Source of the DNA: Acidobacteriota bacterium
Lineage (GTDB): Bacteria > Acidobacteriota > Thermoanaerobaculia > Multivoradales > Multivoraceae
Direction of reading: 5' to 3'
Assembly (NCBI GenBank): GCA_026707325.1
Contig: JAPOXA010000042.1
Span: 11,861-75,860 of the forward strand
DNA: 64,000 nucleotides
The first letter of the stretch is position 1. Every line of letters begins with the position of its first letter. Below the pieces are notes generated by a model, which made no database searches, was not told the origin of the DNA, and worked only from the letters and a program-made list of their open reading frames with translations. This document shows positions 20,834 to 36,999 of this stretch, piece by piece. The translations under genes were made by a program, and so were the position numbers.

Positions 20834-22675
20834 CTAGCGAACGTCGACGCCGCCGCGCAGGAACGACTGGCGACCCCCGATGTCGTCGCGCAAGCCGACG
20901 CCGATGTCGTGGTAGCCGGCTTCCATCGTGACCTCCAGGCCGTAACGCCAGAAGCCTCCCTCGATCTCCCCGAGCCGGTCCTCCGGCACGGTGATCGTCA
21001 ACTCCGTCAGGTGCGGCTCGGTCGCGTGATCGCGCTCGTCCTTCGCCGCCAGCCAGAGCTGGATGCGACCATGGTGGGCGCCGTCCCGCGGGATCAGCGC
21101 GAGTTCCTTCCACGCCACCTCGATCACTACCGGCACGTCGTAGTTGCCGTCCGGGCGTCGCTTCGCCGGCAGGCTGTCGACCCGCACGCCGAGCGGATTC
21201 TCCTGCATGTTCAGGTTGAGCGCCGAGAGGGTGCCCTCCTTCATCCGCGACTCGACCGTCTTGTCGCGGTAGCCCCTGCGGTGGCGAACGGAGGCCCCGC
21301 GCGGCCTGTTCTTCCAGCGTACGTCGACCGTGTGGTAGCGCCCGGCGACGACCGTCGCCGCCGGCATGTAGCCGAGCGAGTAGTAGTTGCGGAAGTCGTC
21401 CGCGATCTTGAGCAGATCCGGCATCACGCGGTTCGCGTTGACCACCGCGCGTCCGCCCGTTTCCTCGGCCATGAGCTGGAGCGGCGCCTGGAGGTTCGTC
21501 AACTGGATCTGGTCGATCAGCGACGCCTGCCCCGGCGCCCCCGCGACCTGGCCGTCCACCGTGCTCTGGGACAGGACCGTCAGCCCGCGGGCGTCGATCG
21601 TGTAGAAGCTGGTCCGATTCGCGTTCGCCCCCGCCGCGAGTTGCTGGAACCGCCTGGACATGTCGTACTCCGACATTTCGATCAGGGACACGGACCGCTC
21701 GTAGAGCTGCTCGACGAAGTAGAAGACGTCCTCGCCCGCGATCATCGGGATGCCGTCGGCGACGTAGATCACCGCCTTGCGGCCCGGCGCCGCCGAGAGG
21801 TTCTCCACCACCCGCGTCAGTCCGTCGATGGCCAGGTGCGTGTCGTTGCGGACCGAGCCGGCATAGGCCATCAGAGCGGTGCGCGCGAAACTGGCGCCGC
21901 CGCCGACCGTCAGCCCCGCACGCTCGGCCGCGGCGATCCCGGGCCGGTTCTCCATCGACTCTTCGTTGTTCACGTCGTTGACGTTGTTGATCAGGTCGCG
22001 GCGCTCGTTGTTGCGATGGAGCCGCTGGGCGGAGACCTCCTCCAGATCGAGCAGCGCGCGGTTCAACTCCTCGCGATTGTTGGTGAACGGCATGCGCAGG
22101 TTCAGCGCCGGGTCGAAGCTGGCCAGCATGACCTTGTCTTCGGGCCGCAACTGCTCCCGGATGAAGGCCCGAAGCTCCCGCAGCACCCGGTTCCGGTTGA
22201 ACGGGGTCAGGTTGTAGTTGTCGATGTAGACGGCGACGTGGAGCGCCTGTTCCGCCGGAATCTCCGGCGGCGCCCGGCGCAGCCGGTCGGCTTCCACGGG
22301 GTCCTCGGGAAGGGGCGGCAGGAGAGGCCGCGCCTCGACTTCGCCGCCGCGGCGGACGAACAGTTCGTCGTCGCGAAGTTCCACCGCGTAGAAATTGCTG
22401 ATCGGAACCGGCCGGCCGTCGACCCGGAGTTCGAAGTCGTCGGGACCGAGCCCGAGCACCGGCTTGCCGTCGGCGCCGGTGACGTACACGTCGATGTTCA
22501 CGACCTCGACGTTGACGACCTCCGTGAAGCCGGGGCCGGACGGAGCGGGTCCGGACGCCGGCTGCGGCTGGACCGCCGCCGGCTGCGTCAGCGCCGCGCA
22601 GAGGGAGACGCCTCCGGCCAGGAGGGCCGGACGGAAGTGCGAGTACCGATGAGGCGCGGAGCGGTTCGCCGACAT
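20834..22675 (-). CDS. VWA-domain protein of the TIGR03436 type, paralog 3 (divergent)
   Basis: 'VVNVEVVNIDVYVTGADGKPVLGLGPDDFELRVDGRPVPISNF' matches the same family architecture. I prefer the start at ATG 22675 (MSANRS..LLAGGVSLCAALTQPAAVQ). The track start at 22741 would overlap the upstream gene by 38 nt. Confidence 0.8.
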   Translation of the reverse strand: MSANRSAPHRYSHFRPALLAGGVSLCAALTQPAAVQPQPASGPAPSGPGFTEVVNVEVVNIDVYVTGADGKPVLGLGPDDFELRVDGRPVPISNFYAVELRDDELFVRRGGEVEARPLLPPLPEDPVEADRLRRAPPEIPAEQALHVAVYIDNYNLTPFNRNRVLRELRAFIREQLRPEDKVMLASFDPALNLRMPFTNNREELNRALLDLEEVSAQRLHRNNERRDLINNVNDVNNEESMENRPGIAAAERAGLTVGGGASFARTALMAYAGSVRNDTHLAIDGLTRVVENLSAAPGRKAVIYVADGIPMIAGEDVFYFVEQLYERSVSLIEMSEYDMSRRFQQLAAGANANRTSFYTIDARGLTVLSQSTVDGQVAGAPGQASLIDQIQLTNLQAPLQLMAEETGGRAVVNANRVMPDLLKIADDFRNYYSLGYMPAATVVAGRYHTVDVRWKNRPRGASVRHRRGYRDKTVESRMKEGTLSALNLNMQENPLGVRVDSLPAKRRPDGNYDVPVVIEVAWKELALIPRDGAHHGRIQLWLAAKDERDHATEPHLTELTITVPEDRLGEIEGGFWRYGLEVTMEAGYHDIGVGLRDDIGGRQSFLRGGVDVR

Positions 22676-22703
22676 GACGCGGAAGAGACTAACCCGTTTG
22701 GGC

Positions 22704-24896
22704 CTACCGCGAAGCGGCGAGCAGCCGCAGTACCTCGGCATCGGGCCAGCGCCGCAGTGCCTCGCCGAGCAGGCCGTCGGCCGAGCGCTCGTCGTTCATC
22801 GCCCGGAGCGCCCGCACGGCCTCGGCGTAGGCGGCCGGATTCGGATTCACCGTGACCATCTCCTGGAGCGTGCGGCCGACTTCGCCGCCTCGTCCGGCCA
22901 GGGCCTGGAGGAAGGCCAGCGACGAGTACGCTCCCAGCAGATCGGGCCGCAGGCCGATGGCGTCCCCGTAGGCGCTCCCGGCCTCCTCGTCCCTGCCCAG
23001 AGCCGCCAGCGCGGCGCCCCGGTAGAGATACAGGTGTCCGAGGATCTCCCGGTCGCCGCGGTCGCCGAACTCGGCCAACACCTCGTCGCTCAGCTCCAGG
23101 GCCTCCTCGTAGCGGTCCTGGCTGTTCAGCCAGACCGTCTTCGTGATCAGCGGTCTCACGTGGAAGCCGCGCTCGGCTATCGCGCGTTCCAGGTACTTCC
23201 CGGCCGCTTCCAGGTCGCCCTCCAGCAACGCCGCCTGGGCGAGCACGTCGTTGGCCATCGGCGAGCGGTCCACGACCGCCAGGGCGTGCTCCCGAGCCTC
23301 GTCGACCCGGCCTTCCAGCAGCAACAACTCCGCCACCTTGAGGCCGGCACTCGAAGCGTCGCCCGCGGACTCCTCGAACGCCTTGCGGTACGCCTGAAGC
23401 GCCTGCCCGGGAAGCGCGCGCCGCTCCAGAAGGTCGCCCAGTTGCTGCCAGGCCAGCACGAGCTGCGGCTCGGCGGCGAGCACTGCCCGTAGCGCCTCTT
23501 CCGCCTCCGACAGATCGCCGCTCTCGATCAGCCGGGAGGCCCGGCCCAGGTCGGCAACGACGCCGATGCGGCTCTTCGGGTCCGCCAGCGACTCGGCGCC
23601 GGAGCGCGCACCGCCGGACAGGTAGCCGAGCGATTCCAGCCGGCGGCGGGTCTCGGGATCGTCCTCGGCCGGCGAGGTCAGCGTGCGGTCGATCGCCCGA
23701 AGAGCCGCGCGCAGGCGCCGCGCCGCCGCCCGCTCCTCCTGGATCACGTTGTTGCGCTCTCCCGGATCCTCGGACAGCCGGTAGAGCTCGGGATCGGGCG
23801 ACTCGATGAAGTGCAGATCGCCTTCGACGATCGACGCGAGATCGCTCCAGCCGAAGTGGATACGGGGATACACGCTCTCGGAGACGATCCGTCGGGGCGC
23901 GGCGCCCGGGGAAGCCGCCTCGGGCGCGAGCAGATCCAGCCCGGCCAGCCCCACGGGCGCCGCCAGCTCCGCAACCGGGTACACCGTCGGCGCGACATCG
24001 CTGAGCTGGGCGCCGGCCGTGATGCGTTCGCCGCCGCGCTCGCCTCCCGGGAGCTTGAAGATCAGGGGCACCTGGATCGTCTCGCGGTAGATCAGGATCA
24101 GGTGATCCATCTCGCCGTGGTCCATCAAACCCTCCCCGTGGTCCGAGAGCAGAACGACCAGCGCCTCGTCGTAGACCCCAAGCTCCTCGAGACGCCCGAT
24201 CAGGCCGGCGACCACCGCATCCGCGGCGGCCACCTCCCCGTCGTAGGGGTCGTCGTAGCGGCCGGCAAACGGCGGCGGCGGCGCGTACGGGGCGTGCGGC
24301 TCGTACAGGTGGAGAAACAGGAAGAAGGGCGAACCCGCCACCCCTCCGAGCCACTCCGACGCAGCCGCAAGCGTCTCCGCCCCGGGACGTTGAAGCCGCC
24401 CCAGTTGCCGCCCGGTCTCGAATCCGACCTCGTCGTCGTAGACGTCGAACCCCCTGGCGATCCCGGTCCCGGAGCGCAGGACGTAGGATGAAACGAACCC
24501 TCCGGTCGCGTAGCCGGCTTTCCCGAACTCGGCCGCCAGCGTCGGGATCGCCTCGTCCAGGCGGTAGCCCGCGTTGTCTCGCACGCCGTGCTCCGACGGC
24601 AGCAGGCCAGTGAACACGCTGACATGGGAAGGCAGGGTGACGTTGACGTGCGTGTAGGCACGCTCGAACAGGATGCCCTCGGCCGCGAGGCGGTCGATGG
24701 CGGGCGTCTCGACCCCGTCGTAGCCGTAGGCCGGCAGCCGGTCCGAGCGCAGGGTGTCGATCGAGATCAGGACGATCGGCGGCCGCGGCGTCTCGGCGGC
24801 CGGCGACGGACCGTCCGGCGGCGACGGACCGCAGGCCAGCGCGACCAGCGCCACGGCGACGGCCAGCCGCCGAGCGGGAGCACCGGGGGCGATCAC
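22704..24896 (-). CDS. Alkaline-phosphatase-superfamily (sulfatase-like) domain + TPR fusion, paralog 2; probable lipoprotein
   Basis: Motifs are 'IVLISIDTLRSDRLPAYG', 'VNVTLPSHVSVFTGLLPSEHGVRDN', 'LHLYEPHAPYAPP' and 'LLSDHGEGLMDHGE', followed by TPR repeats. GTG 24896 (VIAPGAPARRLAVAVALVALAC) forms a GTGA overlap with the upstream stop. The 883-aa track ORF's N-terminal extension was rejected. Confidence 0.85.
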   Translation of the reverse strand: MIAPGAPARRLAVAVALVALACGPSPPDGPSPAAETPRPPIVLISIDTLRSDRLPAYGYDGVETPAIDRLAAEGILFERAYTHVNVTLPSHVSVFTGLLPSEHGVRDNAGYRLDEAIPTLAAEFGKAGYATGGFVSSYVLRSGTGIARGFDVYDDEVGFETGRQLGRLQRPGAETLAAASEWLGGVAGSPFFLFLHLYEPHAPYAPPPPFAGRYDDPYDGEVAAADAVVAGLIGRLEELGVYDEALVVLLSDHGEGLMDHGEMDHLILIYRETIQVPLIFKLPGGERGGERITAGAQLSDVAPTVYPVAELAAPVGLAGLDLLAPEAASPGAAPRRIVSESVYPRIHFGWSDLASIVEGDLHFIESPDPELYRLSEDPGERNNVIQEERAAARRLRAALRAIDRTLTSPAEDDPETRRRLESLGYLSGGARSGAESLADPKSRIGVVADLGRASRLIESGDLSEAEEALRAVLAAEPQLVLAWQQLGDLLERRALPGQALQAYRKAFEESAGDASSAGLKVAELLLLEGRVDEAREHALAVVDRSPMANDVLAQAALLEGDLEAAGKYLERAIAERGFHVRPLITKTVWLNSQDRYEEALELSDEVLAEFGDRGDREILGHLYLYRGAALAALGRDEEAGSAYGDAIGLRPDLLGAYSSLAFLQALAGRGGEVGRTLQEMVTVNPNPAAYAEAVRALRAMNDERSADGLLGEALRRWPDAEVLRLLAASR

Positions 24897-25450
24897 TTCA
24901 GTTCGAGGGTCGTCTCGACGGTCTGCGGCAAACCGGAGACCTCGCCGACCGGCGTCCACACCTCGACCGTCTCGCCGTCTTCCTCGACCTCGGACACGTC
25001 CACCCAACGCGCCTCGCGCAGGCGAACGAGCACTTCGAGCTTGCCGTCTGCCGGCGCCGGACGGCCGGTCTCCGAGGTCCAGAAGTTGAAGAGGGCGACG
25101 TCCTCCGACTCGCCCGCTTCGATCACCTGCAGGAAGAGCTGCTTCTCGTAGACGGGCAACGGCGTCCCGTTCAACTCGACGTCGAAGCCGAAACTGTAGA
25201 CGGCCCGGCTGCCGCTGTTCACGATCGTCGCGGTCAGCTTGCAGAGCGTCTCGGCGCCGGGGGCGCTCGGCGCCACCTCGATGCCGGAGAGGGCCACTTC
25301 CGGCCGGTCCTCCGCGATGACCGCCGTGACGGCAAGCAGGCAGAACGCGGACCACACGCTGACGGTTCGTGACCGCACTGACCGGCTGCGTGACCGGGTC
25401 GTTCCACCGGAAGCTTCGGTCCCTGACGCCGCGTTGAGCACGGCATGCAT
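24893..25450 (-). CDS. Small membrane-anchored or secreted hypothetical protein, probable Ig-like/CARDB-like beta-sandwich
   Basis: From ATG 25450 there is a basic N-region, then the hydrophobic 'VSVWSAFCLLAVTAVIA', then beta-strand-pattern sequence 'LCKLTATIVNSGSRAVYSFGFDVELNG'. GC3 looks high by eye. It is translationally coupled to the downstream AP-TPR gene. The fold assignment is inference. Confidence 0.55.
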   Translation of the reverse strand: MHAVLNAASGTEASGGTTRSRSRSVRSRTVSVWSAFCLLAVTAVIAEDRPEVALSGIEVAPSAPGAETLCKLTATIVNSGSRAVYSFGFDVELNGTPLPVYEKQLFLQVIEAGESEDVALFNFWTSETGRPAPADGKLEVLVRLREARWVDVSEVEEDGETVEVWTPVGEVSGLPQTVETTLELK

Positions 25451-26908
25451 ACTATCGACGGGAAGAACCCGATCATGGCCCTCCGCTCGCTCCTCGCATT
25501 CTCCACCGCGATCCTCGGTCTGGCGCTGCTCGGCGCGACCGTCCTGCCCGCCCAACACCGGGATTCGGACGACCTGCCGCAGGTCACGCCGGACTACCCG
25601 ACACTGGACTCGGCCAGCGGCGGCGGCGCCGTCTACGACCGGCTGCGCCGGTTGATGTCCGAGAAGCCGAAAGCGAGGCGCAGGGCCGCGAACGCGCTGG
25701 CCAAGTCGAATCCGCAAACCCTGGTGCCCCTGGTGGACGCCTACTTCTTCACGCAGGGGGAAGCGCGCACCGACGCACGGCAGCTCCTGGAGTCCCTCTC
25801 AGGAAAGCAGCTCGGAAGCCGCTACCGCGACTGGTTCACGCACGTAGGAAGCCGCACGGACCTTGACGCGCCGCCCGGCTACGTCGCCTGGAAGGGCGAG
25901 CTCTTCTCCCGCATCGACCCGGTCTACCGGCGCATCCTGAGCCCCGGCGTTGCCGTCAGGCTCCGGCTCCGCGAGGTCCAGTGGGGCGGCGTGCCCCTGG
26001 ACGGCATCCCGGCCATCGACGATCCGCAGGCCGTACCCGCCGATACCGCGCGCTTCATGCGCGATACGGATACCGTCTTCGGCGTCCGTATCGGCGGCGA
26101 GCATCGCGCCTATCCGGTGAAGGTCCTCAGTTGGCATGAACTGCTGAACGACACGGTGGGAGGCCAGCCGATCACCCTCTCGTTCTGCACTCTCTGCGGT
26201 TCCGGAATCCTCTACTCGGCAGTCGACGACGGGGGCAACCGGCTGATGTTCGGCACCTCCGGCCTGCTCTACCGATCGAACAAGCTGATGTTCGACCGGG
26301 CCACACTCAGCCTCTGGAGCAACCTGACCGGCGAGGCCATGGTGGGGACGCAAGCCGCCGAAGGCGCCGCGCTCACCATGCTGCCGATGACGCTGACCCG
26401 CTGGGACGCCTGGCGCCAGCGCCATCCCGACACGACCGTGATGGTCCCGGACCCGGCGGCCGCGCAGCGAACGGGCTACCGCTACGTGGAAGGCGCCGCG
26501 GATCAGGCGCGCGCCGGAGTCGAGTTCCCGGTGTGGCGGCAAAGCGATGTACTGGAACGAAACGCGCGGATCTATGCGCTCCGGGTGAACGGCGAAGCGA
26601 AGGCGTATCCCCTCGAGAAGCTGGGCGCGGAGCGCCTGGTCAACGACATCGTTGGAGGGCTCGAAATCGTGCTCGTCCTCGACCCCGACAGCGACGCCGT
26701 GCGAGCCTACGAACGTGGCAGCCTCACGTTCCAGACACCCGACGAGGGCCGGCTTCGGACGCTCCGCGCCGGAGACGGGTCCACCTGGTGGCTCGCGGAG
26801 GAGGGGCTGGCGCCCGAGGGAGACGGCGATCTCCTACCGCGGGTCCCCGGCCACACGGCGTTCTGGTTCGGCTGGTTTGCGTTCTACCCGGAGACGGCGG
26901 TCTACTGA
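25445..26908 (+). CDS. DUF3179-domain protein, secreted
   Basis: 'FGVRIGGEHRAYPVKVLSWHELLNDTVGGQPITLSFCTLCGSGILY...FGTSGLLYRSNKLMFDRATLSLWSNLTGEAMVG' is the DUF3179 core. The start is either ATG 25445 or ATG 25475 (MALRSLLAFSTAILGLALLGA). Confidence 0.85.
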   Translation: MHTIDGKNPIMALRSLLAFSTAILGLALLGATVLPAQHRDSDDLPQVTPDYPTLDSASGGGAVYDRLRRLMSEKPKARRRAANALAKSNPQTLVPLVDAYFFTQGEARTDARQLLESLSGKQLGSRYRDWFTHVGSRTDLDAPPGYVAWKGELFSRIDPVYRRILSPGVAVRLRLREVQWGGVPLDGIPAIDDPQAVPADTARFMRDTDTVFGVRIGGEHRAYPVKVLSWHELLNDTVGGQPITLSFCTLCGSGILYSAVDDGGNRLMFGTSGLLYRSNKLMFDRATLSLWSNLTGEAMVGTQAAEGAALTMLPMTLTRWDAWRQRHPDTTVMVPDPAAAQRTGYRYVEGAADQARAGVEFPVWRQSDVLERNARIYALRVNGEAKAYPLEKLGAERLVNDIVGGLEIVLVLDPDSDAVRAYERGSLTFQTPDEGRLRTLRAGDGSTWWLAEEGLAPEGDGDLLPRVPGHTAFWFGWFAFYPETAVY

Positions 26909-26949: not shown

Positions 26950-29496
26950 TCAGTCGCCGCAGGGAAACGCCTTGTTGTCGCTCCTCGCCGCGGCGGTCTG
27001 ACCGAGACGGTTGCTGTGCCTCCAGACCTCGTCGTCTGGGTTCGGCGACACCACGGTGAGATCGAACGCGAGGTCCGTCACAGGCGCCACGTACACCCAC
27101 CGATAGGGGGCGAAACTGCAAGTGTCCAGCACCTTGATGAGAACCTCGGCGTTGTTCGGGTTGAAGAAGTAGAGGAGGCCAGACTGCTTCGATTTGAGCC
27201 CGTAGTCCTGCGCCTTCGTGACCGTCGGCTCGCCCGTCGCGGAGTCCAGGTACTCGACGCACATGTTCACGATGTAGCCATCCGCCAGCGTCGCCACCGG
27301 CTCGGGTTCGCAGTCCGTCGCCTCGTTGGGAGCGATCGCCTGAGTGACGCCAACGGGTGCCGGCGCCGAAAAGACCGGCGGCGCAATCGCGGAGCGGGCC
27401 ACGGGGAAGCCGGAATCGACGAGTTCCAGCCCCGGCGTACCAGCGGGGCCAAGTGCCACGGCCACCGTCGAGGCGGATGTCTCACAGGGGAACGCGCGGT
27501 TGTCGCTCCGGGTCGTCGCAGTCGTTCCACCCTTCGGATTCCGGTGCGTCCACCGCCTTCCGGGCGCGGACTCTTCCACGTTGAGATTGTCCACGTGGAG
27601 ATTGAACGCAAGGTCCGTTACCGGCGCCACGTAGACCCAGTAGTAGTCGCTGATGGCACAGGTGTTCAGCACCTTGACCAGCACCTCCGCATTGTCCCGA
27701 TCGAAGAAGTACAGGATGCCGGACTCGCTCGACTCCAGACCGTAGTTCTGGGCGTCCTCCGCAACGGTTTGACCCGTGTCCGGGTCTCGGTACTCGACGC
27801 ACATGCTGACGGAAAAGCCATGCTCGAACGTGATCTGCGAGGCCGATGGCACGCAGTTCGTGTACTCGGCCTCGCTCAGGATGATCGTGGTCACTCCGCT
27901 ATTCCGGCCGCCGCTCCGGTTCCAGGCCCGGACGCGGAAGTCGTAGCGGCCGCCGGCACGGAGGCCGTCGACATCGGCCGACTCCGCGTTCGCGGGCGCC
28001 TCGGCCACCGTCCGCCAGCCGGCGCCCGCGAGCCGGGCGTGGACGTGGAAGCCGTGCTCGTTGTCCGACGCGTCGGTCCAGGTCACCTTGACGCTGGTGC
28101 TGGCGGTCGCGATGACGCTGACATCCGTCGGCGCGTCCGGGCGGTCGCCAGGCGGCGGCGGTGGTGGCGGCGGTTCCCCCGGTTCCGGAAGATGGTCGCT
28201 GAGCCGGACCGCGATGTGAATGGTCTGCTGCACGGCGCGCTCGTTCTCCCGCTCGTCCTTGACGCCGAGGGTGTAGCCATCCGGTTTCACCCGCACGGTC
28301 GAGAAGAACGGCATCTGCCTGCCCTCGTTGTAGCTCATGACGCTCTTCCGGTTGGGCTGGGGCGTGAAGTTGTGGTGACCGTAGGCGTACGGATAGACCG
28401 CATTCGAACGCTGCACGCCCGTGTTGTCCGGGTCGTGGTTCCCGCCCAGGTTGTGCCCGATCTCGTGGGCGAACGTCTCGACGTGGTTCGCGTGTTCTCC
28501 AGGCCGTACCAGGCGCTCGGCGCTGACGCAGCCGCCGGCCACGGACGTGATGCCGTAGCCGCTACCCCAGAAGTTCGCCGCCGTGTGCCCACGCGTCATC
28601 ACCCATGCCTGACCGCAGAGACCGGCGTCGGCGTTGAAGAACAGGTGGACGAGATCGGCCTCATGCTCCACTCGCAGGTCGTGCACCTCTCGATTGTTGG
28701 TGAGCGGGTCCAGCGGATTGTTGAACTGACCGAGTCCGGCCGGCGCCTCCTCCTGATGCACCATGTTCGCCGTCACGGCGACCTGGTTGTTGCGGAACAC
28801 CAGGTTCAGGTAGTCCATCGCGTGCTGTGTGAACATTGCGGGCGGCCCCCAGCCAGCCTGTTCCAACCGCTGCCGCGCGGACGCCGTGTAGAGGATGAGG
28901 ATGTCGAGCCGGTCGTGGTTCGACGCACTGGCCACGCGCCGCGGCGTGTCAGCGCGCGCCGCCGCGGCGACCCGCGCCGCCGGGTCGGCGTCCGGAACGA
29001 CTCCGCCGCCACAGGCCCGGGCCGAAGCCTCGCCGCCCTCGGTCAGGCGGCCGAAACCGTCGGCGGGCGAGCGAATCCAGTAGGTGTCGCCTTCCGGCAG
29101 CCCCAAGCGCCCGACCAGGTGGCCGTCCTGCAACGTCAGCAAGACGCTGTCGTAGCCAGCTTCCGGGTAGCCGCCAACCCACATCGCATTCCCGTCGCCG
29201 CGGTCTTCGAAGACGCGCATCTCCGGGGCCAGCACGCGGCCGTCCGGCGCCTCGAACTCAAGGCGTCGGGGAGCGGAACGCACGAGATCGTGATCGACCT
29301 CGACGGACCACCCGCCGTCCGAGGTCGGATCATCGCCCAGCGGGACGACGTTCAGAAACCGCTGACCCTGCGCACTCGCGGCAAGAAAGACAAGGAGGAA
29401 AAGCGGCAGACAGGACGGAAAGGGCCGTCCCCGCCGTCGGTCTGAAAGGGGCGCGCAAGCGCCGTCATCCCCTGCGGGAAGTCGTCGATCGTTCAT
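26950..29496 (-). CDS. Secreted zinc metalloprotease (metzincin/reprolysin-like) + FN3 + two C-terminal repeats of an unnamed domain (848 aa)
   Basis: HEIGHNLGGNHD (HExxHxxGxxH) lies at 28432-28467. A poly-Pro linker precedes an FN3-like 'PTDVSVIATASTSVKVTWTD..RYDFRVRAWN'. The repeats lie at 27484-27855 and 26953-27312. A signal-like 'LPLFLLVFLAASAQGQ' is present. Confidence 0.9.
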   Translation of the reverse strand: MNDRRLPAGDDGACAPLSDRRRGRPFPSCLPLFLLVFLAASAQGQRFLNVVPLGDDPTSDGGWSVEVDHDLVRSAPRRLEFEAPDGRVLAPEMRVFEDRGDGNAMWVGGYPEAGYDSVLLTLQDGHLVGRLGLPEGDTYWIRSPADGFGRLTEGGEASARACGGGVVPDADPAARVAAAARADTPRRVASASNHDRLDILILYTASARQRLEQAGWGPPAMFTQHAMDYLNLVFRNNQVAVTANMVHQEEAPAGLGQFNNPLDPLTNNREVHDLRVEHEADLVHLFFNADAGLCGQAWVMTRGHTAANFWGSGYGITSVAGGCVSAERLVRPGEHANHVETFAHEIGHNLGGNHDPDNTGVQRSNAVYPYAYGHHNFTPQPNRKSVMSYNEGRQMPFFSTVRVKPDGYTLGVKDERENERAVQQTIHIAVRLSDHLPEPGEPPPPPPPPGDRPDAPTDVSVIATASTSVKVTWTDASDNEHGFHVHARLAGAGWRTVAEAPANAESADVDGLRAGGRYDFRVRAWNRSGGRNSGVTTIILSEAEYTNCVPSASQITFEHGFSVSMCVEYRDPDTGQTVAEDAQNYGLESSESGILYFFDRDNAEVLVKVLNTCAISDYYWVYVAPVTDLAFNLHVDNLNVEESAPGRRWTHRNPKGGTTATTRSDNRAFPCETSASTVAVALGPAGTPGLELVDSGFPVARSAIAPPVFSAPAPVGVTQAIAPNEATDCEPEPVATLADGYIVNMCVEYLDSATGEPTVTKAQDYGLKSKQSGLLYFFNPNNAEVLIKVLDTCSFAPYRWVYVAPVTDLAFDLTVVSPNPDDEVWRHSNRLGQTAAARSDNKAFPCGD

Positions 29497-29574: not shown

Positions 29575-32334
29575 CTAGCGCGGCAGCGCTCCGGTGTCGA
29601 TGCCGCCACACAGGCTGCCCGCCGCGTTGTAGTAGGGCACGGACTCGCCGGTTACCGTGTCGGTCAGCGTGATCGTGTACTCCACGTCCGAGAGACCGCC
29701 GTACAGGAACCAGTACTTGCCGGTCAGGGCGCGGCCGTCCAGCACCTTCGCCGCCAGCTCCACGTTGGTCGGGCTGAAGAACCAGAAGAAGCCGGTCTCC
29801 TTCGTCGTCAGCGACGAAACGACCTGGCCGGCCTTCCTCTCATTCACGTTCGGATCGGTGAACTCGACTTCAACCGAGAACCGACCGTCGTGCAGGCAGA
29901 GGCGGCCGGCGCCGGGTTCACAGGTTCCGGCGCCGTCCTGGGCCAGCGCAACACCAGGAACATCGATGGAAACCGCCTTCATCGGGACCAGGTCGACTCC
30001 CTCACTCCCGTCCGCCGCAGCCGAGTCGACGGACGCGGAGAACGCGGCGGGAACGAACGCCGTGATGTCGGACTGACCGCAGTTCTCGGCCGGCGGGTTG
30101 TGGTATGTCCGGCGGCGGCCGCCGGCGGTGTCGCGGACCGTGACCCAGTACTCGACGTCCGAGAGGGCGCCGAAGAACACCCAGTAGTGGCCGTTGACTC
30201 CGGTGCCATCGAGAGCCTTGACCACGAGTTCGATGTTCGAGTTGCTGAAGAACCAGAACATCCCCGACTCGTCCGAGACGTCGACCGGCACGGCGGTCCC
30301 CAGGCCGTACACGCCTTCGCGGTTGTGGTCCTTCCAATGCGCCTGGATCTCGAAGCGGCCCCGGGACAGGCAGAGGTACTGCCCTCCCGATCGGCAGGGG
30401 CCGGACACGTCACCGGTCGTCACGTTGATCTCGTCCGACCAGGAGGAGACCTTGCCGCCGTTTGCGCGCAGACGCAGACGGAAGGTGTAGGGAGCCTCGG
30501 CGTCGAGGCCCTCCACCGTCACCCGACCGGCCGCGGCATCGGTCGAAGCCACGTTGCGCCACCCTTCCTTCCACGACCGCGCCTCGATCTCGACCGTGCC
30601 ATCCACGGGTGACCATCCCAGTTCGACCGCGGTGGCACCGCCAGGCGTCGCCGTGAGGTCGTCCGGCACGCTGATCCCCTCGGGACCGGGGCCTGGACCG
30701 GGACCGTCGCCGCCGGCACGCAGCGTGACGGTGACCAGATCGCTGTCGGCGCCGCCAAGGTTGTGGCGCGCGCGTACCCGAAACGTGTAGCGTCCTTCTT
30801 CCTTCAGTCCGGTAATCTCGATGGACTCAGTGTCAGCCGGCGCCGCACCGACGTGCCTCCAGATGTCCGCGCCTGTTCTGGCCTGGATCGCGAAGGCGAT
30901 CTCATCGTCCGACCGGTCTTCCCATTCAAGTCGAGCGCTTGTACTGCTCGTCGCCTTGACGCTCAGGCTCGCCGGCGCCACGGGCACCCAATCCGGGACC
31001 TCGTCGAACTCCGCCGGATCCGGCATGTGCTCGTCATAACCGACCGCCTGCGGAACCGTGTCGTACAGAGCCCGCTCATTGTCCCGCTCGTCGGCCTTGC
31101 CGATCGTCCAGTCGTTCGGCTGGATGCGCGTCGAGGAGAAGAACGGCACCCACTGGCGCGGCAAGTAGCTCCGGTAGCTCATGATCGTCTCGACCGTGGG
31201 AACGACGTTGATGTCGAAGTGGCCGAAGGCCCACGGCCTGACCGCCACGTCCTTGCTGATCCCGGTGTTGGCGGGATCGTGGTTGGCGCCCAGGTTGTGG
31301 CCGATCTCGTGAGCGAAGACCTGGCCGAAGTAGGGATAGGCGCCCTCCTGGGCGGGGAAGCTGCAGTTCGCGGTCGTCACGCCATGAGCGTTCGACCAGT
31401 CGGCCCGCTCGCCGGCGCGGGTGAGTATGTATGCGCGGCCGCAGAAACCGAGACGTCGCGGATCCTCGCCGATGAACAGGTGGACAAGGTCAGCCCGGTG
31501 CTCCGCCCGCAACTCGGCCACCTCCCGAAGGTCCTGCAACCGTCCAAGCACGGACTGCGGACCGTCCAGCGCCGCGGGCGCTTCGGCCATGTGCACCAGA
31601 CGGGCGCTGGCCGGCATCGAGTTGTTCCGCAACACGAGATTCAGGAAGTCCATCGCGGCTTGAATCGACGCCCTGGGCGTGCCGTAGCCGAAGCTCTCCC
31701 AGACCTCCGCCGCCTCCACCGTGTAGAGAGCGAGAATGTCGAGCCGATCGTGGTTCGACTCGCTGGCCACAACGGTAGGCGGATCGGATCGCCGCGGTCG
31801 GGCTGCGGCGTTCGTCTCCGGCGAATCGGAGACGACGCCTCCCGCGCAGAACTCCACACCGCCCGCCGGTCCGCGCTGGGCAGGCTGATCCAACCAGCCT
31901 CGGCCGTCCCGGCCGGAGCGAATCCAGTGGGCGGCTCTGCCCGGTTCGCCGAACATCCCCTGGAGGTGCCCGCCCTGAACCGTCAACACGACGCTGTCGT
32001 AGTTCGCGCCCGGGAACCGGCCCGCCCACATCACGTTGCCGCCTCCCCGATCCTCGAACGCACTGCGCTCGGCGACCAGGATCCGGCTGTCCGTACCCTG
32101 TAACTCCAGGCGCTGGGGACCCGCACGCACCAGATCGTGGTCGACGACGATCGCCGTTCCGGCCGCGCGCGCCGCGGCGCTCCGGTCGTCGGCGGCGGAC
32201 GCGAGGCTTGCGAACTGCTGGCCTTGAGCACCGGCGGCCACGAACAGCAGACAAAGACCCGGCAGCAGCCGGCGACACGCAAGAGCGACCCGCCTGGACC
32301 GGCGTCCACCAGTCCTGAACCTCAACAGCGACAC
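29575..32334 (-). CDS. Secreted zinc metalloprotease (metzincin/reprolysin-like) + two FN3 + two C-terminal repeats of the same unnamed domain (919 aa)
   Basis: HEIGHNLGANHD lies at 31276-31311. It is collinear with the 848-aa paralog through the pro/catalytic region. It has two FN3-like modules and a GPGPGPGP linker. The repeats lie at 30049-30396 and 29578-29922. The GTG start is preceded by GAGGAGGAG. Confidence 0.9.
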   Translation of the reverse strand: MSLLRFRTGGRRSRRVALACRRLLPGLCLLFVAAGAQGQQFASLASAADDRSAAARAAGTAIVVDHDLVRAGPQRLELQGTDSRILVAERSAFEDRGGGNVMWAGRFPGANYDSVVLTVQGGHLQGMFGEPGRAAHWIRSGRDGRGWLDQPAQRGPAGGVEFCAGGVVSDSPETNAAARPRRSDPPTVVASESNHDRLDILALYTVEAAEVWESFGYGTPRASIQAAMDFLNLVLRNNSMPASARLVHMAEAPAALDGPQSVLGRLQDLREVAELRAEHRADLVHLFIGEDPRRLGFCGRAYILTRAGERADWSNAHGVTTANCSFPAQEGAYPYFGQVFAHEIGHNLGANHDPANTGISKDVAVRPWAFGHFDINVVPTVETIMSYRSYLPRQWVPFFSSTRIQPNDWTIGKADERDNERALYDTVPQAVGYDEHMPDPAEFDEVPDWVPVAPASLSVKATSSTSARLEWEDRSDDEIAFAIQARTGADIWRHVGAAPADTESIEITGLKEEGRYTFRVRARHNLGGADSDLVTVTLRAGGDGPGPGPGPEGISVPDDLTATPGGATAVELGWSPVDGTVEIEARSWKEGWRNVASTDAAAGRVTVEGLDAEAPYTFRLRLRANGGKVSSWSDEINVTTGDVSGPCRSGGQYLCLSRGRFEIQAHWKDHNREGVYGLGTAVPVDVSDESGMFWFFSNSNIELVVKALDGTGVNGHYWVFFGALSDVEYWVTVRDTAGGRRRTYHNPPAENCGQSDITAFVPAAFSASVDSAAADGSEGVDLVPMKAVSIDVPGVALAQDGAGTCEPGAGRLCLHDGRFSVEVEFTDPNVNERKAGQVVSSLTTKETGFFWFFSPTNVELAAKVLDGRALTGKYWFLYGGLSDVEYTITLTDTVTGESVPYYNAAGSLCGGIDTGALPR

Positions 32335-32393: not shown

Positions 32394-33818
32394 CTATCGC
32401 GACGCCGCGTCGCCCACGACGACCACCGCCACGCCCTCGGGGTCGATGAAGCGCTGCGCCGCCCGCAGGATGTCGGCAGCGGTGACCGCGAGGAGCCGCT
32501 CGCGATACACCGCCCAGTATTCGTGAGGGCGACCAAGCAGCTCGTCCTCGGCGTAGCGGCCGGCGACGGTCTCGGCGCGATCGAACAGCAGCGGCAGGCG
32601 GGCGAGAAGGGACTGCCTGGCGGTGGCGATCTCCGTACCGGGCACGTCCTCCTGCCGGAGCCGGCGGAGTTCCTCGAGCACGGCGGCGGCGGCCGTCGCG
32701 GCCGACTCGGGGGCAGTCTCGAGGAAGACGCGGAACTCTCCCCCACCCTGGCTCCCCGCCGAAACCGATGCGGCCGGAACGACATCCAGGTCGAACCAGG
32801 TGAGCACCCGGTAGGTGAGCCCCTCCTCGAGCTGCAGCCGCGAACGCAGACGCGACACCGCGCCCGGGCCGTCGAGGATCTCGGTCAGCAGCATGAGGGC
32901 CCAGCGATCGGGATCGTCCCAGGATTCGAAGACGGCACCCCGGTGGCCGATCGCGATCGCGGCCTGCGGTCCCGCACGGTCGATCGCCCTCCAGCCCGGC
33001 GTCGCGGCGGCGACGGCCGGGAGCGCTCCGCCTCCGGTCGCTTGCCGCTCCGACGCCTTCCAACCGCCGAACAGCTCGTCGAGGCGCGCCACCAGCTCGT
33101 CGGCGTCGACGTCGCCCGAGACGGCGATCACTGCTCCCTCCGGCCGCCAGTGCCGCCGGTGGAACCGGACCAGCACGCCCGGATCGAATGCCGCCACGGA
33201 CGCCTCCGTCAGCCGGCGGCTCCGCTTCGAGTCCGGGCCATGCACGAGACGCAGCCACTCGCGGTCCAGCACCGCCCGCGGGTCGTCGGCTTCCGCCAGC
33301 AGGCTGACGCGGAGGTTCTCTTTCGCCTGTTCCAGTCGTTCTTCGTCGAACCGCGGCTCGAACAGGATCGCCGCCAGCAGCTCCAGCCCCCGGTCGAGCG
33401 ACTCGGAACCCGAGTCGAGCACCAGGACCGTACGTCCCCAGGAACTGCTCGCCTGGATACGGGCGCCCAGGGCGTCGATCTCGTCGTCGAGCTGCTCGGG
33501 ACCGAGGTCGCCGGCGCCGCCGCGCCGCGCCATCGCGGCCGTCATGGAGGCCAGTCCGTCCTCGCCCGGTCCCTCGTTCCGGTCACCGACCGGAAGCGCC
33601 ACCACGACGTCCATGAGCGGCAGGCTGCGGTCGGGCACGACATAGACCGGCAGGCCGTTCCGAAGCTCGAAGCGGAGCCCGTCGACCGGCGGCGGCTCGA
33701 ACGTCGACGGAGCGAAGCGCAGTTCCTCCGGCCGCTCCGGGATCGCCTGCGCCGGAAGGCACTCGGCGAACGGCGGCGCCGCCGCCGCGAGAACCGCGAG
33801 TGCGAGCAGCCGGCTCAC
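32394..33818 (-). CDS. M16 (pitrilysin/insulinase) family protein, non-catalytic-type subunit (no HxxEH)
   Basis: It shows M16 fold-like collinearity ('LRFELRNGLPVYVVPDRSLPLMDVVVALPVGDRNEG') but lacks the HxxEH motif. GTG 33818 (VSRLLALAVLAAAAPP) forms a GTGA overlap with the upstream stop. Confidence 0.85.
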   Translation of the reverse strand: MSRLLALAVLAAAAPPFAECLPAQAIPERPEELRFAPSTFEPPPVDGLRFELRNGLPVYVVPDRSLPLMDVVVALPVGDRNEGPGEDGLASMTAAMARRGGAGDLGPEQLDDEIDALGARIQASSSWGRTVLVLDSGSESLDRGLELLAAILFEPRFDEERLEQAKENLRVSLLAEADDPRAVLDREWLRLVHGPDSKRSRRLTEASVAAFDPGVLVRFHRRHWRPEGAVIAVSGDVDADELVARLDELFGGWKASERQATGGGALPAVAAATPGWRAIDRAGPQAAIAIGHRGAVFESWDDPDRWALMLLTEILDGPGAVSRLRSRLQLEEGLTYRVLTWFDLDVVPAASVSAGSQGGGEFRVFLETAPESAATAAAAVLEELRRLRQEDVPGTEIATARQSLLARLPLLFDRAETVAGRYAEDELLGRPHEYWAVYRERLLAVTAADILRAAQRFIDPEGVAVVVVGDAASR

Positions 33819-35278
33819 GGTCCGGCGTTCCCGGTCCGGGTCAGCGAGAGGACGGCCCGGTCGACCGGCCGGAGCCAGCGGTCGATCACCCGCTCCAGGT
33901 CGTCGGCCGAGACCGCGGCCGCGGCGTCGAGCCATTCCGTCAACTGTCGCCAGCCCCCGAGCGCCTCGGCCGCCGCCAGACGTTGCGCCAGCCCGGCGTC
34001 CTGCTCGAGCTGGCGCCAGGAATCCGTCAGGAGCTGCCGGCGCACCCGCTCGAGTTCGGCATCACCGGCGCGGCCCGTGCGCAACCGGCCGAGGAGCCGG
34101 TCCCAGGCCGGGATCAACTCCTCGGGACCGACGCCCTCGCCCGCCTCGATCCGCACCGCGAAGTAACCGCCGAGGCTGCGCGACACATGCTCCGCCGACG
34201 CCGCGAAGGCGACCCGGCCTTCGCCCACGACCAGGTCCCGGTAGAGCCGGCCGGAACGGCTGTTCAGGAGACCGGCCAGGACGTCCAGGGCGACCGGGTC
34301 GCCACCGGCCTCGAAGGGCACCGTGGGATAGCGAATCTCGACCTGGCTGCGGCAGGCACAGGAGCCTTCGAGGGATTCGAGCGCCGGCTTCGCGACCTTC
34401 TCCGCGCCAGCCGCGTCGCCGGCCTCTCCCCCACGCGCACGGCCGGCGCGGTCGAGCCTGCCGAAGTAGCGTTTCGCCAAGTCGCGAGCGCGCTCTGGCG
34501 ACAGGTCCCCCACCAGCACCGCGACGAGACGGTCGGGCCGGTAGTGGGTTTCGAAGTGGGAACGCGCGTCCGCCGGCAGGAGCCGCGCAACCTCGAGGCG
34601 CTCGCCGCCCGGCGAATGGGCGTAGGGGTGTCCGGCGCCCCAGTAGGCGGCGTCGAACAGCTCGAACCAGGTTCCGGCAGGAGTCGAATCGATGCGCTGG
34701 CGGCGCTCCTGTTCGACCACCGCCAGTTCTCGCCGGAAGCCCCGGAACACCGGCTCGAGCAGGCGGTCGGATTCCATCCAGAACCAGAGTTCGAGCTTCT
34801 CCTTCGGCACGAGCGTCTGGAACGCCGTCGAGTCGTGACGGGTGACCGCGTCGATCCCGAGCGCGGCCGCCCGGGTGTAGATGCTGGAATAGGCGCCGGG
34901 ACGCTGAACGGCGTTCAACCGCCGCTCAACCCGGTCCAGACCGGACACTGTCGCGCCGCGCCGGACGGACTGTTCGTACAGCCGCTCCCAGCGCCGGAGC
35001 AAGGGCGCTTCCTTCTCCCAGTCGCGGGTGCCGATCGTCCGGCTGCCTGCGTACAGGAGATGTTCGACGACGTGGGCGAGACCGCGGCGGCCGGGCGGAT
35101 CCGACGCGGAGCCGCCACGCACCACCCAGACGGCGGCCACCAGGGGCCGGCCAGGGCGTTCGACGACCAGGAAGGTCATCCCGTTGTCGAGGGTGAAACG
35201 GGCGGGTTCGAGGGGCGGCGCGGCAGCGGCCGCCGTTGCGGCGACGAGCAGGAGCGCCGGCGCACCGACGGGTTTCAC
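33815..35278 (-). CDS. M16 family zinc peptidase, catalytic-type subunit
   Basis: 'GLAHVVEHLLYAGS' contains HxxEH at 35060-35074. GTG 35278 (VKPVGAPALLLVAATAAAAA is a signal peptide) forms a GTGA overlap with the upstream CRTAC1-like gene. Confidence 0.85.
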   Translation of the reverse strand: MKPVGAPALLLVAATAAAAAPPLEPARFTLDNGMTFLVVERPGRPLVAAVWVVRGGSASDPPGRRGLAHVVEHLLYAGSRTIGTRDWEKEAPLLRRWERLYEQSVRRGATVSGLDRVERRLNAVQRPGAYSSIYTRAAALGIDAVTRHDSTAFQTLVPKEKLELWFWMESDRLLEPVFRGFRRELAVVEQERRQRIDSTPAGTWFELFDAAYWGAGHPYAHSPGGERLEVARLLPADARSHFETHYRPDRLVAVLVGDLSPERARDLAKRYFGRLDRAGRARGGEAGDAAGAEKVAKPALESLEGSCACRSQVEIRYPTVPFEAGGDPVALDVLAGLLNSRSGRLYRDLVVGEGRVAFAASAEHVSRSLGGYFAVRIEAGEGVGPEELIPAWDRLLGRLRTGRAGDAELERVRRQLLTDSWRQLEQDAGLAQRLAAAEALGGWRQLTEWLDAAAAVSADDLERVIDRWLRPVDRAVLSLTRTGNAGP

Positions 35279-36999
35279 GGGCGTTCCTCGACGACGAGGT
35301 AGGCGCCGGCCGGTGGATCGACGATCCGGGTGCGGGCGCCCGAGGGCCAGCGGAGGTCGAGTTGCCGCCGGCCGTCCGCCGCCGGGACGGCCCAGCGCAG
35401 GCGGTGGCCGCTCGACGACTGGTAGCTGTCGCCGCGGATCGCCCAGCGTCGTGCCGGCGGCGTGCCGGTTTCGCCGGACAGGGTCGCCACGGCGCCCACC
35501 GCCTGCGTGTTCGGAGACCGTCCGCGCAGTTCGAGGCCCAGCCACGTAGCGCCAGCCGGCCCGGCCGTGTCGTTTCGCCACAGGCGGGCCGGACCGTCGT
35601 TCGCCGTCACGAGAAGATCGCCGTCGCCGTCGTTGTCGTAGTCCGCGATGGCGGCCCCCCGGCTCACCAGGGGATCCTCGTCGGTCCAGGCGCAGCGCAC
35701 CTCGGAGAAACTCCCCGCCGCCTTGCCGGAGCGGCCACGCAGCAAGAGGTTCCGCTGCCGGTGCTCCGTGTTGTCACGCCGCGGCGACGCGAAGATATGG
35801 CCGTTCGCGACGTACACGTCGAGGGCGCCGTCGCGGTCGAAGTCCTCGGCGACGATCCCGAAACCCAACAGGTTGAACGATGGCTGCCCGAAACCGGCAG
35901 TGGCCGAGACGTCCTCGAACAGCAGGTCCGGTCCCGGCCCGGCGTTTCGATACAGCGTGTTCGTCTCCACGTCGAAGTTGGTCACGGCCAGATCGGGGTC
36001 GCCGTCGAGGTCGAAGTCGGACACGGCGAGACCCATGCCCGCCTCGGGCCGGCCGTTGCGGTTGACGGCGGCGCCCGAGAGCAGGGACAGATCCTCGAAC
36101 GTGCCGTCGCCCCGGTTCCCGAACAGGAGGTTCAGCGTCAGGTCGTTCGCGACGTAGAGGTCGGGCCGGCCGTCCGCGTTCAGGTCGGTGAACAGGGCGC
36201 CCAGGCCCTTGCCGTCTGCGCCGGCCAGGCCGGCGGAGGACGTCGCGTCCTCGAACTCGCCTCCGCCGCGGTTCGTGTAGAACCGGTCGTGCTGGCCAAC
36301 GAACAGGGACGGATCGCACACCTCGGGCGGCGATTCGGAACCCTCCCGGCGGCAGTCCAGGCCGTGATCCGGGTCGTAGTCGACGTAGCGGCTGACATGG
36401 AGATCGAGATCGCCGTCCCCATCCGCGTCGGCCAGCGCCATCGAGGAGCCCCAGGGGAACTCGGCCGCCTCTCCCTCCGGCGCGGCCGCCGGCAGCGGTT
36501 TCGCCGCGGCGAAGCGACCGGCGCCGTCGTTGCGCAGGAGGACCGTGGGGCCATAGCGCGAGACGAGCAGGTCGATGTCGCGGTCACCGTCGACGTCGGC
36601 GGCGGCGACGCCCTGGCCGTAGCCGCGCGCGAGCTCGCCGGCGCCGGCCGGAATGAAACGAAACTCCCCGGCGCCGTCCGGACCGAGGTTCCGGAACAGC
36701 CGGTCCGACGAACGCGCGCCGCCATCCGGCGGAAACGGCCCCGACTGCACCAGGTAGAGATCCAGCCAGCCGTCGCCGTCGAAGTCGATCCACGCCACCC
36801 CGGCGCCCATCGTCTCCGGCAGGTGCAGCCCGCCGCGTGAGCCGGAGTCGTGGACGAAGCGGACTCCCGCTTCGGCTGCCGTCTCCGCGAACGTGAAGCC
36901 GCAGTCCTCCGGGGCAGCGGCCAGGCAGGGGCGGAGAGCGAACGACTGAACGGCGGCCAGGACGACGGCCAACCGCCGGACACCGCCTCGCCAACCCAT
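35275..36999 (-). CDS. FG-GAP/VCBS repeat + ASPIC/UnbV domain protein (CRTAC1-like), secreted
   Basis: 'GAGVAWIDFDGDGWLDLYLV', 'AADVDGDRDIDLLVS', 'ADADGDGDLDLHVSRY' and 'SDFDLDGDPDLAVTNF' are present, with a C-terminal '..IRGDSYQSSSGHRLRWAV'. It is the first gene of a three-gene minus-strand operon. Confidence 0.9.
   Translation of the reverse strand: MGWRGGVRRLAVVLAAVQSFALRPCLAAAPEDCGFTFAETAAEAGVRFVHDSGSRGGLHLPETMGAGVAWIDFDGDGWLDLYLVQSGPFPPDGGARSSDRLFRNLGPDGAGEFRFIPAGAGELARGYGQGVAAADVDGDRDIDLLVSRYGPTVLLRNDGAGRFAAAKPLPAAAPEGEAAEFPWGSSMALADADGDGDLDLHVSRYVDYDPDHGLDCRREGSESPPEVCDPSLFVGQHDRFYTNRGGGEFEDATSSAGLAGADGKGLGALFTDLNADGRPDLYVANDLTLNLLFGNRGDGTFEDLSLLSGAAVNRNGRPEAGMGLAVSDFDLDGDPDLAVTNFDVETNTLYRNAGPGPDLLFEDVSATAGFGQPSFNLLGFGIVAEDFDRDGALDVYVANGHIFASPRRDNTEHRQRNLLLRGRSGKAAGSFSEVRCAWTDEDPLVSRGAAIADYDNDGDGDLLVTANDGPARLWRNDTAGPAGATWLGLELRGRSPNTQAVGAVATLSGETGTPPARRWAIRGDSYQSSSGHRLRWAVPAADGRRQLDLRWPSGARTRIVDPPAGAYLVVEERP

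Follow-up and report, generated by a model that had tools for sequence, protein, structure and literature searches.

An undescribed tandem C-terminal module of exported Acidobacteriota proteins, carried in duplicate by two neighbouring metzincin proteases

Two metzincin genes and the module they carry

The window analysed here is a stretch of 64,000 nucleotides from an Acidobacteriota bacterium (assembly GCA_026707325.1, contig JAPOXA010000042.1, forward-strand positions 11,861 to 75,860), in which two neighbouring minus-strand open reading frames (ORFs) encode metalloproteases of 848 amino acids (aa; protein 1) and 919 aa (protein 2) that each end in two tandem copies of a module for which no database name was found. 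On public contigs identical to the window, the 848-aa and 919-aa genes are each called as a single gene, and one family representative (P0143) is identical to protein 2. The two proteins share a common layout, in which an N-terminus resembling a Sec signal peptide is followed by about 150 aa without annotation, a metzincin catalytic region, fn3 sequence, and the module twice (Table 1). In protein 1, the signal-peptide-like N-terminus reads RRRGRPFPSCLPLFLLVFLAASA/QG and the C-terminus is AFPCGD followed by the stop codon.

Judged from their sequences, both host proteins are M12B/reprolysin-like metzincins on the combined evidence of Pfam scores, an HExxH motif, and a Met-turn. The Pfam model Reprolysin_5 scores 49 and 48.7 bits against the two proteases (cut-off 27), Reprolysin_3 and Reprolysin_4 also exceed their gathering scores, and the translations of both contain the zinc motif HEIGHNLG(G/A)NHD, which follows the HExxHxxGxxH(D) pattern. 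The corresponding stretches are HEIGHNLGGNHD with an SVMSY Met-turn in protein 1 and HEIGHNLGANHD with a TIMSY Met-turn in protein 2.

The C-terminal 300 residues of protein 1 and 275 residues of protein 2 hold four segments that align with one another over their full length. BLASTP comparison of the two copies belonging to the same protein gives E values of 6e-44 and 3e-30, and comparison across the two proteins gives 2e-14. A hidden Markov model (HMM) of the family, searched against the six-frame translation of the whole 64-kb window, detects these four copies and no others, and a profile built from ten unrelated family members recovers all four, with domain E values of 1.4e-39 to 5.7e-07. 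Together, the full-length alignment, the window-wide HMM search, and the independent profile confirm the four copies, two per metalloprotease, where an earlier note made from the sequence alone had placed them, and the significance of the alignments bears out its view that they constitute a domain. The four segments are thus copies of one undescribed extracellular domain of about 115 residues that is real and well delimited.

Table 1. Positions of the two metzincins and their constituent regions in the window
Feature	Position	Strand	Content	Evidence
Protein 1 (848 aa)	26950..29496	-	Signal peptide, N-terminal pro-like region, M12B/reprolysin-like metzincin, one fn3, two modules (four-cysteine variant)	ORF, Pfam
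Protein 1 metzincin catalytic region	28183..28908	-	About aa 197-438	Pfam Reprolysin_5 (aa 256-398), Reprolysin_3, Reprolysin_4; NCBIfam Mep72, partial
Protein 1 fn3	27904..28137	-	aa 454-531	Pfam fn3, E 1.7e-09
Protein 1 module copy 1	27484..27861	-	aa 546-671, four-cysteine variant	HMM domain E 2.1e-33; independent profile 1.5e-09; cysteine pattern
Protein 1 inter-copy linker	27319..27483	-	About 55 aa, rich in Ala/Pro/Gly/Ser/Val	Gap between HMM envelopes
Protein 1 module copy 2	26953..27318	-	aa 727-848, four-cysteine variant	HMM domain E 4.8e-29; independent profile 5.7e-07
Protein 2 (919 aa)	29575..32334	-	Signal peptide, N-terminal pro-like region, M12B/reprolysin-like metzincin, two fn3, two modules (canonical type)	ORF, Pfam
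Protein 2 metzincin catalytic region	31120..31743	-	About aa 198-405	Pfam Reprolysin_5/3/4; NCBIfam Mep72, partial, E 2.7e-17
Protein 2 two fn3	30412..30978	-	About aa 453-641	Pfam fn3, two stretches, E 4.1e-14; fn3_2 at aa 588-640
Protein 2 module copy 1	30055..30402	-	aa 645-760, canonical Cys3/Cys11 plus Cys105	HMM domain E 4.8e-47; independent profile 1.4e-39
Protein 2 module copy 2	29581..29928	-	aa 803-918, canonical type	HMM domain E 4.7e-50; sequence modelled with AlphaFold2

Database searches and predicted structure

Each of the four copies was scanned separately against Pfam-A (copy dated 2025), NCBIfam release 20, and PHROGs. The best Pfam-A match of any copy had an E value of 0.045, which is at chance level; NCBIfam gave no match to any copy at E<=1, and PHROGs gave nothing better than 0.0013, far short of cut-offs. 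In particular, neither the profiles for the sorting domain used by type IX secretion systems (T9SS; TIGR04183 and PF18962, in NCBIfam and Pfam) nor, at E<=1, the Pfam models for carbohydrate-binding modules (CBMs) and the PPC domain matched the module. Sequence-profile searches of the PDB with alignments of 4 and 40 sequences returned chance matches only (best E 0.1), and a search of the literature for a described C-terminal domain of Acidobacteria or Thermoanaerobaculia produced nothing relevant. Few of the top 240 database relatives have precomputed Pfam domains, and those that are present are partner domains, such as fn3 and CARDB.

The structure of copy 2 of protein 2 was predicted with AlphaFold2 from a 40-sequence alignment at a mean predicted local distance difference test score (pLDDT) of 94.6 and a predicted template modelling score (pTM) of 0.87, giving an all-beta domain of nine strands and one short helix, which is probably stabilized by disulfides. 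When this single-copy model was compared with the PDB by Foldseek, nothing was retrieved at E<=0.001 (best E 0.095, template modelling (TM) score 0.31-0.33), and the viral BFVD library likewise gave nothing at that threshold; over the PDB and BFVD searches TM scores were no higher than about 0.3-0.44. A model of the C-terminal region of protein 2 (279 aa; pLDDT 88.1, pTM 0.82), in which the linker of about 45 aa is disordered, found no relative in the PDB (TM <=0.19), and solved CBM or beta-sandwich structures were absent from the Foldseek results against the PDB with the module models. A pTM of 0.82 for two 115-aa domains, despite the disordered linker, suggests a fixed packing of the copies, and the two are predicted on this ground to pack as one pseudo-dimeric unit. 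The module is thus without a solved relative among PDB structures, and to speak of a new fold would be a wider claim than the searches of PDB and BFVD support. The earlier note had been unable to name the module, and it is still unnamed after searches of Pfam-A, NCBIfam, PHROGs, and the PDB by both profile and fold.

Distribution, architecture, and subfamilies

The family is large and sharply delimited. A word-indexed search of 5.8 billion proteins returned 294 relatives, all annotated as 'hypothetical' and almost none with a precomputed Pfam domain, and those of them that carry a taxonomic label belong to Thermoanaerobaculia or Acidobacteria(ota). When 1.84 billion cluster representatives (50% identity) were searched exhaustively with HMMER, 10,393 matched at E<=1e-3; of these, 9,409 reached E<=1e-10, and 4,482 reached E<=1e-30. 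A scan of one genome per GTDB species gave at least 575 confirmed matches, of which the best 80 were all from Acidobacteriota, namely Thermoanaerobaculia, Holophagales, and one 'Candidatus Multivoraceae'. Taxonomic labels were read for the top-scoring matches, and for these the family is apparently restricted to Acidobacteriota. The 80 genome loci examined (L001-L080) were found with an alignment of the canonical subfamily, which biases them toward canonical copies of Thermoanaerobaculia and Holophagales. Short proteins that appeared in the first search to consist of the module alone were mostly gene-call fragments or an effect of the length filter; one of them (P0012) corresponds to the C-terminal part of an orthologue of protein 2, and another (P0087) extends upstream into a zincin motif.

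The architecture of the family was surveyed in the 150 best representatives, a sample biased by score, and in the 80 genome loci, which were taken irrespective of copy number. Two copies of the module are present in 147 of the representatives and four in the other 3, and the pair occupies the extreme C-terminus of 132 representatives, whereas in 9 it comes straight after the signal peptide and in another 9 it is internal; the linker between copies has a median length of 36 aa and is rich in Ala, Pro, Gly, and Ser. In the genome loci, two or four copies are carried by 84 of 117 domain-bearing ORFs. There are many paralogues per genome and per locus, and in 24 of the 80 loci two or more domain-bearing genes stand side by side, as they do in the window. 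No neighbouring gene is conserved across the 80 loci.

When about 120 representatives were scanned with Pfam and NCBIfam, the fusion partners proved very diverse and all extracellular. Among them are M10, M12, and M23 peptidases, a trypsin-like peptidase, GH113, F510_1955 glycosylhydrolase, lipases, PKD, Sortilin/BNR, fn3, Laminin_G_3, Vgb-lyase-type propellers, Calx-beta, SdrD_B, and a cupredoxin. The main exception to C-terminal placement is a family of proteins of about 800 aa (P0153, P0167, P0208, P0222, and P0248) in which the pair comes right after the signal peptide and is followed by some 500 residues with no Pfam or NCBIfam match. Other non-C-terminal pairs have unusual partners, namely a cupredoxin domain, an M23 peptidoglycan endopeptidase domain, and a HExxH domain of the MXAN_6640 type (P0130, P0138, and P0238). 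Pfam and NCBIfam models of known sorting signals found none in the proteins whose pair is not C-terminal.

Cys3 and Cys11 are present in 92-95% of 310 copies examined, with a third cysteine at column 105 in 32%, and the copies of protein 2 follow this canonical pattern. Conservation of Cys3 and Cys11, taken with the signal peptides of the host proteins, points to an exported, oxidized domain in which the cysteines would form extracellular disulfides. The copies of protein 1 belong to a minority variant without Cys11 that has four cysteines (the first residue, an inserted 'MC', 'D(T/G)C', and a final 'FPC'). In a dedicated search this variant proved to be a genuine subfamily, found in about 30 proteins with two copies and in a recurrent single-copy family of about 400 aa (P0326, P0327, P0331, and P0352) whose members start with a signal peptide, continue with about 250 aa of unannotated domain and a (PD/PE)n linker, and have one four-cysteine module; the labelled members are Holophagales or Acidobacteria metagenome-assembled genomes. 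The variant follows a zincin motif again at one further locus (L083, 5668-6522, plus strand), where an ORF contains HEAGHNLGIAH and then one four-cysteine copy, the 173-aa gene call P0087 lying within it. This ORF is short and starts just past a large carboxylase gene, and may represent a truncated or degenerate protease; a run of N is found about 500-600 bases downstream of it, around positions 7050-7200.

The two copies of protein 1 are 52-54% identical to each other and 23-29% identical to those of protein 2 over match columns, in agreement with the earlier note, which had described them as much closer to one another than to the copies of the neighbouring protease. The note had attributed this pattern to independent internal duplication or gene conversion, an explanation that holds only in part. 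Recent gene conversion between the copies of protein 1 is ruled out, because their DNA is only about 65-76% identical and long identical tracts are absent. Of 298 copies compared across the family, 220 are closest to the copy in the same position of another protein and 39 to their own partner, and the copies of protein 2 are 87% (copy 1) and 76% (copy 2) identical, position for position, to those of a GH113 protein (P0144) from another sample, which indicates that the pair moves between genes as a two-domain cassette. Identity between the two proteases is 44% over the first 540 aa and only about 27% in the modules, and this difference is better explained by replacement of a cassette with one of a different subfamily than by recent conversion. 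What stands of the earlier explanation is a slower process: identity within pairs (median 0.64) exceeds the family background (0.55), which points to some long-term homogenization or repeated re-duplication, and copy-1 and copy-2 sequences show no deep distinction (0.550 versus 0.550). From these sequence comparisons, the pair therefore appears to spread between genes as a two-domain cassette with slow homogenization or occasional re-duplication, and the divergence of the window proteins is best accounted for by the different subfamilies to which their cassettes belong.

Possible roles of the module and genomic surroundings

The module is a new family inside a familiar class, that of the accessory modules of secreted enzymes. 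As possible roles, the earlier note had suggested a carbohydrate- or matrix-binding module or a sorting module, and this is in keeping with all the observations. Its best explanation, to which we give about even credence, is a non-catalytic binding or anchoring module whose tandem pair serves as a pseudo-dimeric unit; the binding function and the nature of the ligand are what we infer. On a flexible linker of Ala, Pro, Gly, and Ser, the pair would act as one unit situated at one end of the mature protein, in nearly every case the extreme C-terminus, and would tether the attached enzyme or adhesin-like passenger to one shared ligand, for which a polysaccharide or another cell-envelope or extracellular-matrix polymer is the most plausible candidate. 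The two window proteins, adamalysin-like zinc proteases exported by Sec, would in this way be kept close to the cell surface or matrix. A binding or anchoring role is favoured by the predicted self-contained twin unit, the flexible linker, the spread of the pair as a cassette over unrelated exported passengers, and its placement at either end of the protein; pairs that directly follow the signal peptide or lie internally are easier to reconcile with a binding unit than with an export signal at the C-terminus. The lack of a conserved neighbour gene at the 80 loci is counted on the same side, since nothing there hints at dedicated machinery.

The closest architectural precedent is Mep72 of Pseudomonas aeruginosa, an adamalysin-like metzincin with two tandem C-terminal CBMs that is exported by type II secretion and whose autolysis is retarded by alginate (PMC4334185). 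Like Mep72, the window proteases are Sec-exported, adamalysin-like metzincins with two tandem non-catalytic modules at the C-terminus. The NCBIfam model of Mep72 (NF052434) scores 66.4 bits against protein 1 (E 1.9e-18, model positions 2-234 of 573, protein aa 197-438) and 62.6 bits against protein 2 (E 2.7e-17, model positions 2-198), but only the catalytic part is matched, far below the equivalog cut-off of 645 bits. The modules of the window proteins are, moreover, unrelated in sequence to the CBMs of Mep72, and fn3 spacers are present in the window proteins.

Several observations weigh against a binding or anchoring role. In sequence and in predicted structure, the module resembles no characterized carbohydrate-binding or anchoring module, and carbohydrate-active enzymes appear to be in the minority among its fusion partners, which include many proteases and lipases, propellers whose function is unknown, adhesin-like repeats, PKD, fn3, and Calx-beta proteins, and unannotated domains. 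Pairing is also optional, given that single-copy proteins exist, and the packing of the pair as one unit is read from a pTM value; the apparent restriction to one phylum comes from the top-scoring matches. A further point is the position of the stop codon, which lies within 8 aa of the last copy in 106 of the 111 ORFs of the 80 loci that reach a stop (about 95%), a placement that resembles sorting domains and is stricter than usual for binding modules; 73 of these 106 proteins end exactly on a conserved Phe of the domain (ADTxAF, then the stop). The possibility that this terminal Phe belongs to an outer-membrane beta-signal was considered separately and is ruled out, since positions -3 and -5 are polar and internal copies have the same motif.

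The strict terminal placement favours the main rival, which we consider unlikely, namely a secretion or sorting signal at the C-terminus that would belong to an unrecognized, phylum-specific export or surface-attachment pathway of Acidobacteriota. Such a signal would be an analogue of the C-terminal domain (CTD) of Bacteroidota type IX secretion or of the PEP-CTERM/exosortase system, read by machinery in the outer membrane and perhaps cleaved off or employed in covalent attachment. Like the T9SS CTD (Por_Secre_tail, TIGR04183 and PF18962), the module is a small beta domain that mostly forms the very C-terminal end of exported enzymes and adhesins of many kinds, apparently confined to one phylum and borne by many cargo genes per genome, and its cargo of proteases, glycosidases, lipases, and PKD, fn3, BNR, and Calx-beta proteins is much like that of T9SS. 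However, the 18 of 150 representatives in which the pair is N-terminal or internal are incompatible with a strictly C-terminal signal, and the first copy of a pair, although internal and lacking a free C-terminus, closes on the same AF motif. The module is usually duplicated, unlike known CTD signals, and matches no sorting-signal model of NCBIfam or Pfam and no CTD fold; it occurs in Acidobacteriota rather than Bacteroidota, no conserved machinery gene adjoins it in the 80 loci, and neither window protein ends in F. A bolder and somewhat less probable form of this proposal would make the twin module the recognition or attachment element of an undiscovered sorting or surface-display system specific to Acidobacteriota, built on a beta fold without a solved relative; were it true, the system would be a functional counterpart of the T9SS CTD, PEP-CTERM, or dockerins and would delimit the set of proteins that Thermoanaerobaculia and Holophagae export. 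Dockerins of cellulosomal enzymes are likewise internally duplicated C-terminal units borne by many enzymes in a restricted set of organisms, but the likeness is one of organization only. They are helical Ca2+-binding repeats of about 70 residues with a known partner, cohesin, whereas the module consists of two times 115 residues of beta structure without a known partner.

Another proposal, on which we place the same low weight as on a sorting signal, is that of a substrate-targeting CBM in the CAZy sense, which would concentrate degradative enzymes on one environmental polysaccharide instead of anchoring them to the cell's own surface. Fusions to GH113, to F510_1955-type glycosylhydrolases, to BNR/sortilin-type propellers, and to LamG speak for it, as does the succession of enzyme, fn3, and module, an order common in chitinases and cellulases. 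The analogy with Mep72 also lends it some support, and the conserved aromatics (FWFF, W, and Y), together with conserved Asp, Asn, and Glu positions, could form a sugar or Ca2+ site, although these aromatics may simply be core residues. CBMs and PPC domains (PF04151), including the collagen-binding domains of clostridial collagenases, are comparable as non-catalytic beta modules, often in tandem, that are attached by flexible linkers C-terminally to secreted hydrolases, metalloproteases among them; the module nevertheless has no likeness to any Pfam CBM model or solved CBM fold, its Foldseek comparisons with solved structures, beta sandwiches included, having reached TM <=0.33, and most of its partners appear not to be carbohydrate-active enzymes. 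Least probable of all, and in our view doubtful, is a mainly oligomerizing or folding unit (a dimerization domain or intramolecular chaperone) that has no external ligand and whose copies pair within the chain when in tandem and between chains when single. The tandem pTM, which implies packing of copy against copy, the single-copy family of about 400 aa, which could be a homodimer, and the elevated identity within pairs agree with it, but pTM is indirect support, and the spread of the module through a phylum on unrelated passengers and its terminal placement would be left unexplained.

Acidobacteriota are among the most abundant bacteria of soils, sediments, and sponges, and most of them are uncultured. 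The module marks a large and diverse set of acidobacterial exported enzymes, comprising more than 10,000 sequence clusters that have no database name, and defining the family would improve the annotation of thousands of 'hypothetical' proteins. It would also provide a sequence handle on the secreted or surface proteome of Thermoanaerobaculia and Holophagae, and, at about 115 residues for a single copy or 275 for the pair, the module would be an expressible target in which a new binding specificity or a new sorting pathway might be sought.

Directly upstream of the metzincins, on the same strand, lie two slightly overlapping genes for M16 (pitrilysin/insulinase-type) peptidases (32394-33935 and 33815-35581, both minus strand), so that the M16 pair and the metzincin pair form a run of four predicted peptidase genes. 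The module-free neighbours include a sulfatase-TPR fusion (22704-25355, minus strand), a DUF3179 protein (25445-26908, plus strand), and an FG-GAP/ASPIC-UnbV protein (35275-36999, minus strand), which are typical exported or envelope proteins. Two further ORFs, of 719 aa (18664-20823, plus strand) and 635 aa (20834-22741, minus strand), have no Pfam match; gene calls for them on the public contig give lengths of 719 and 613 aa.

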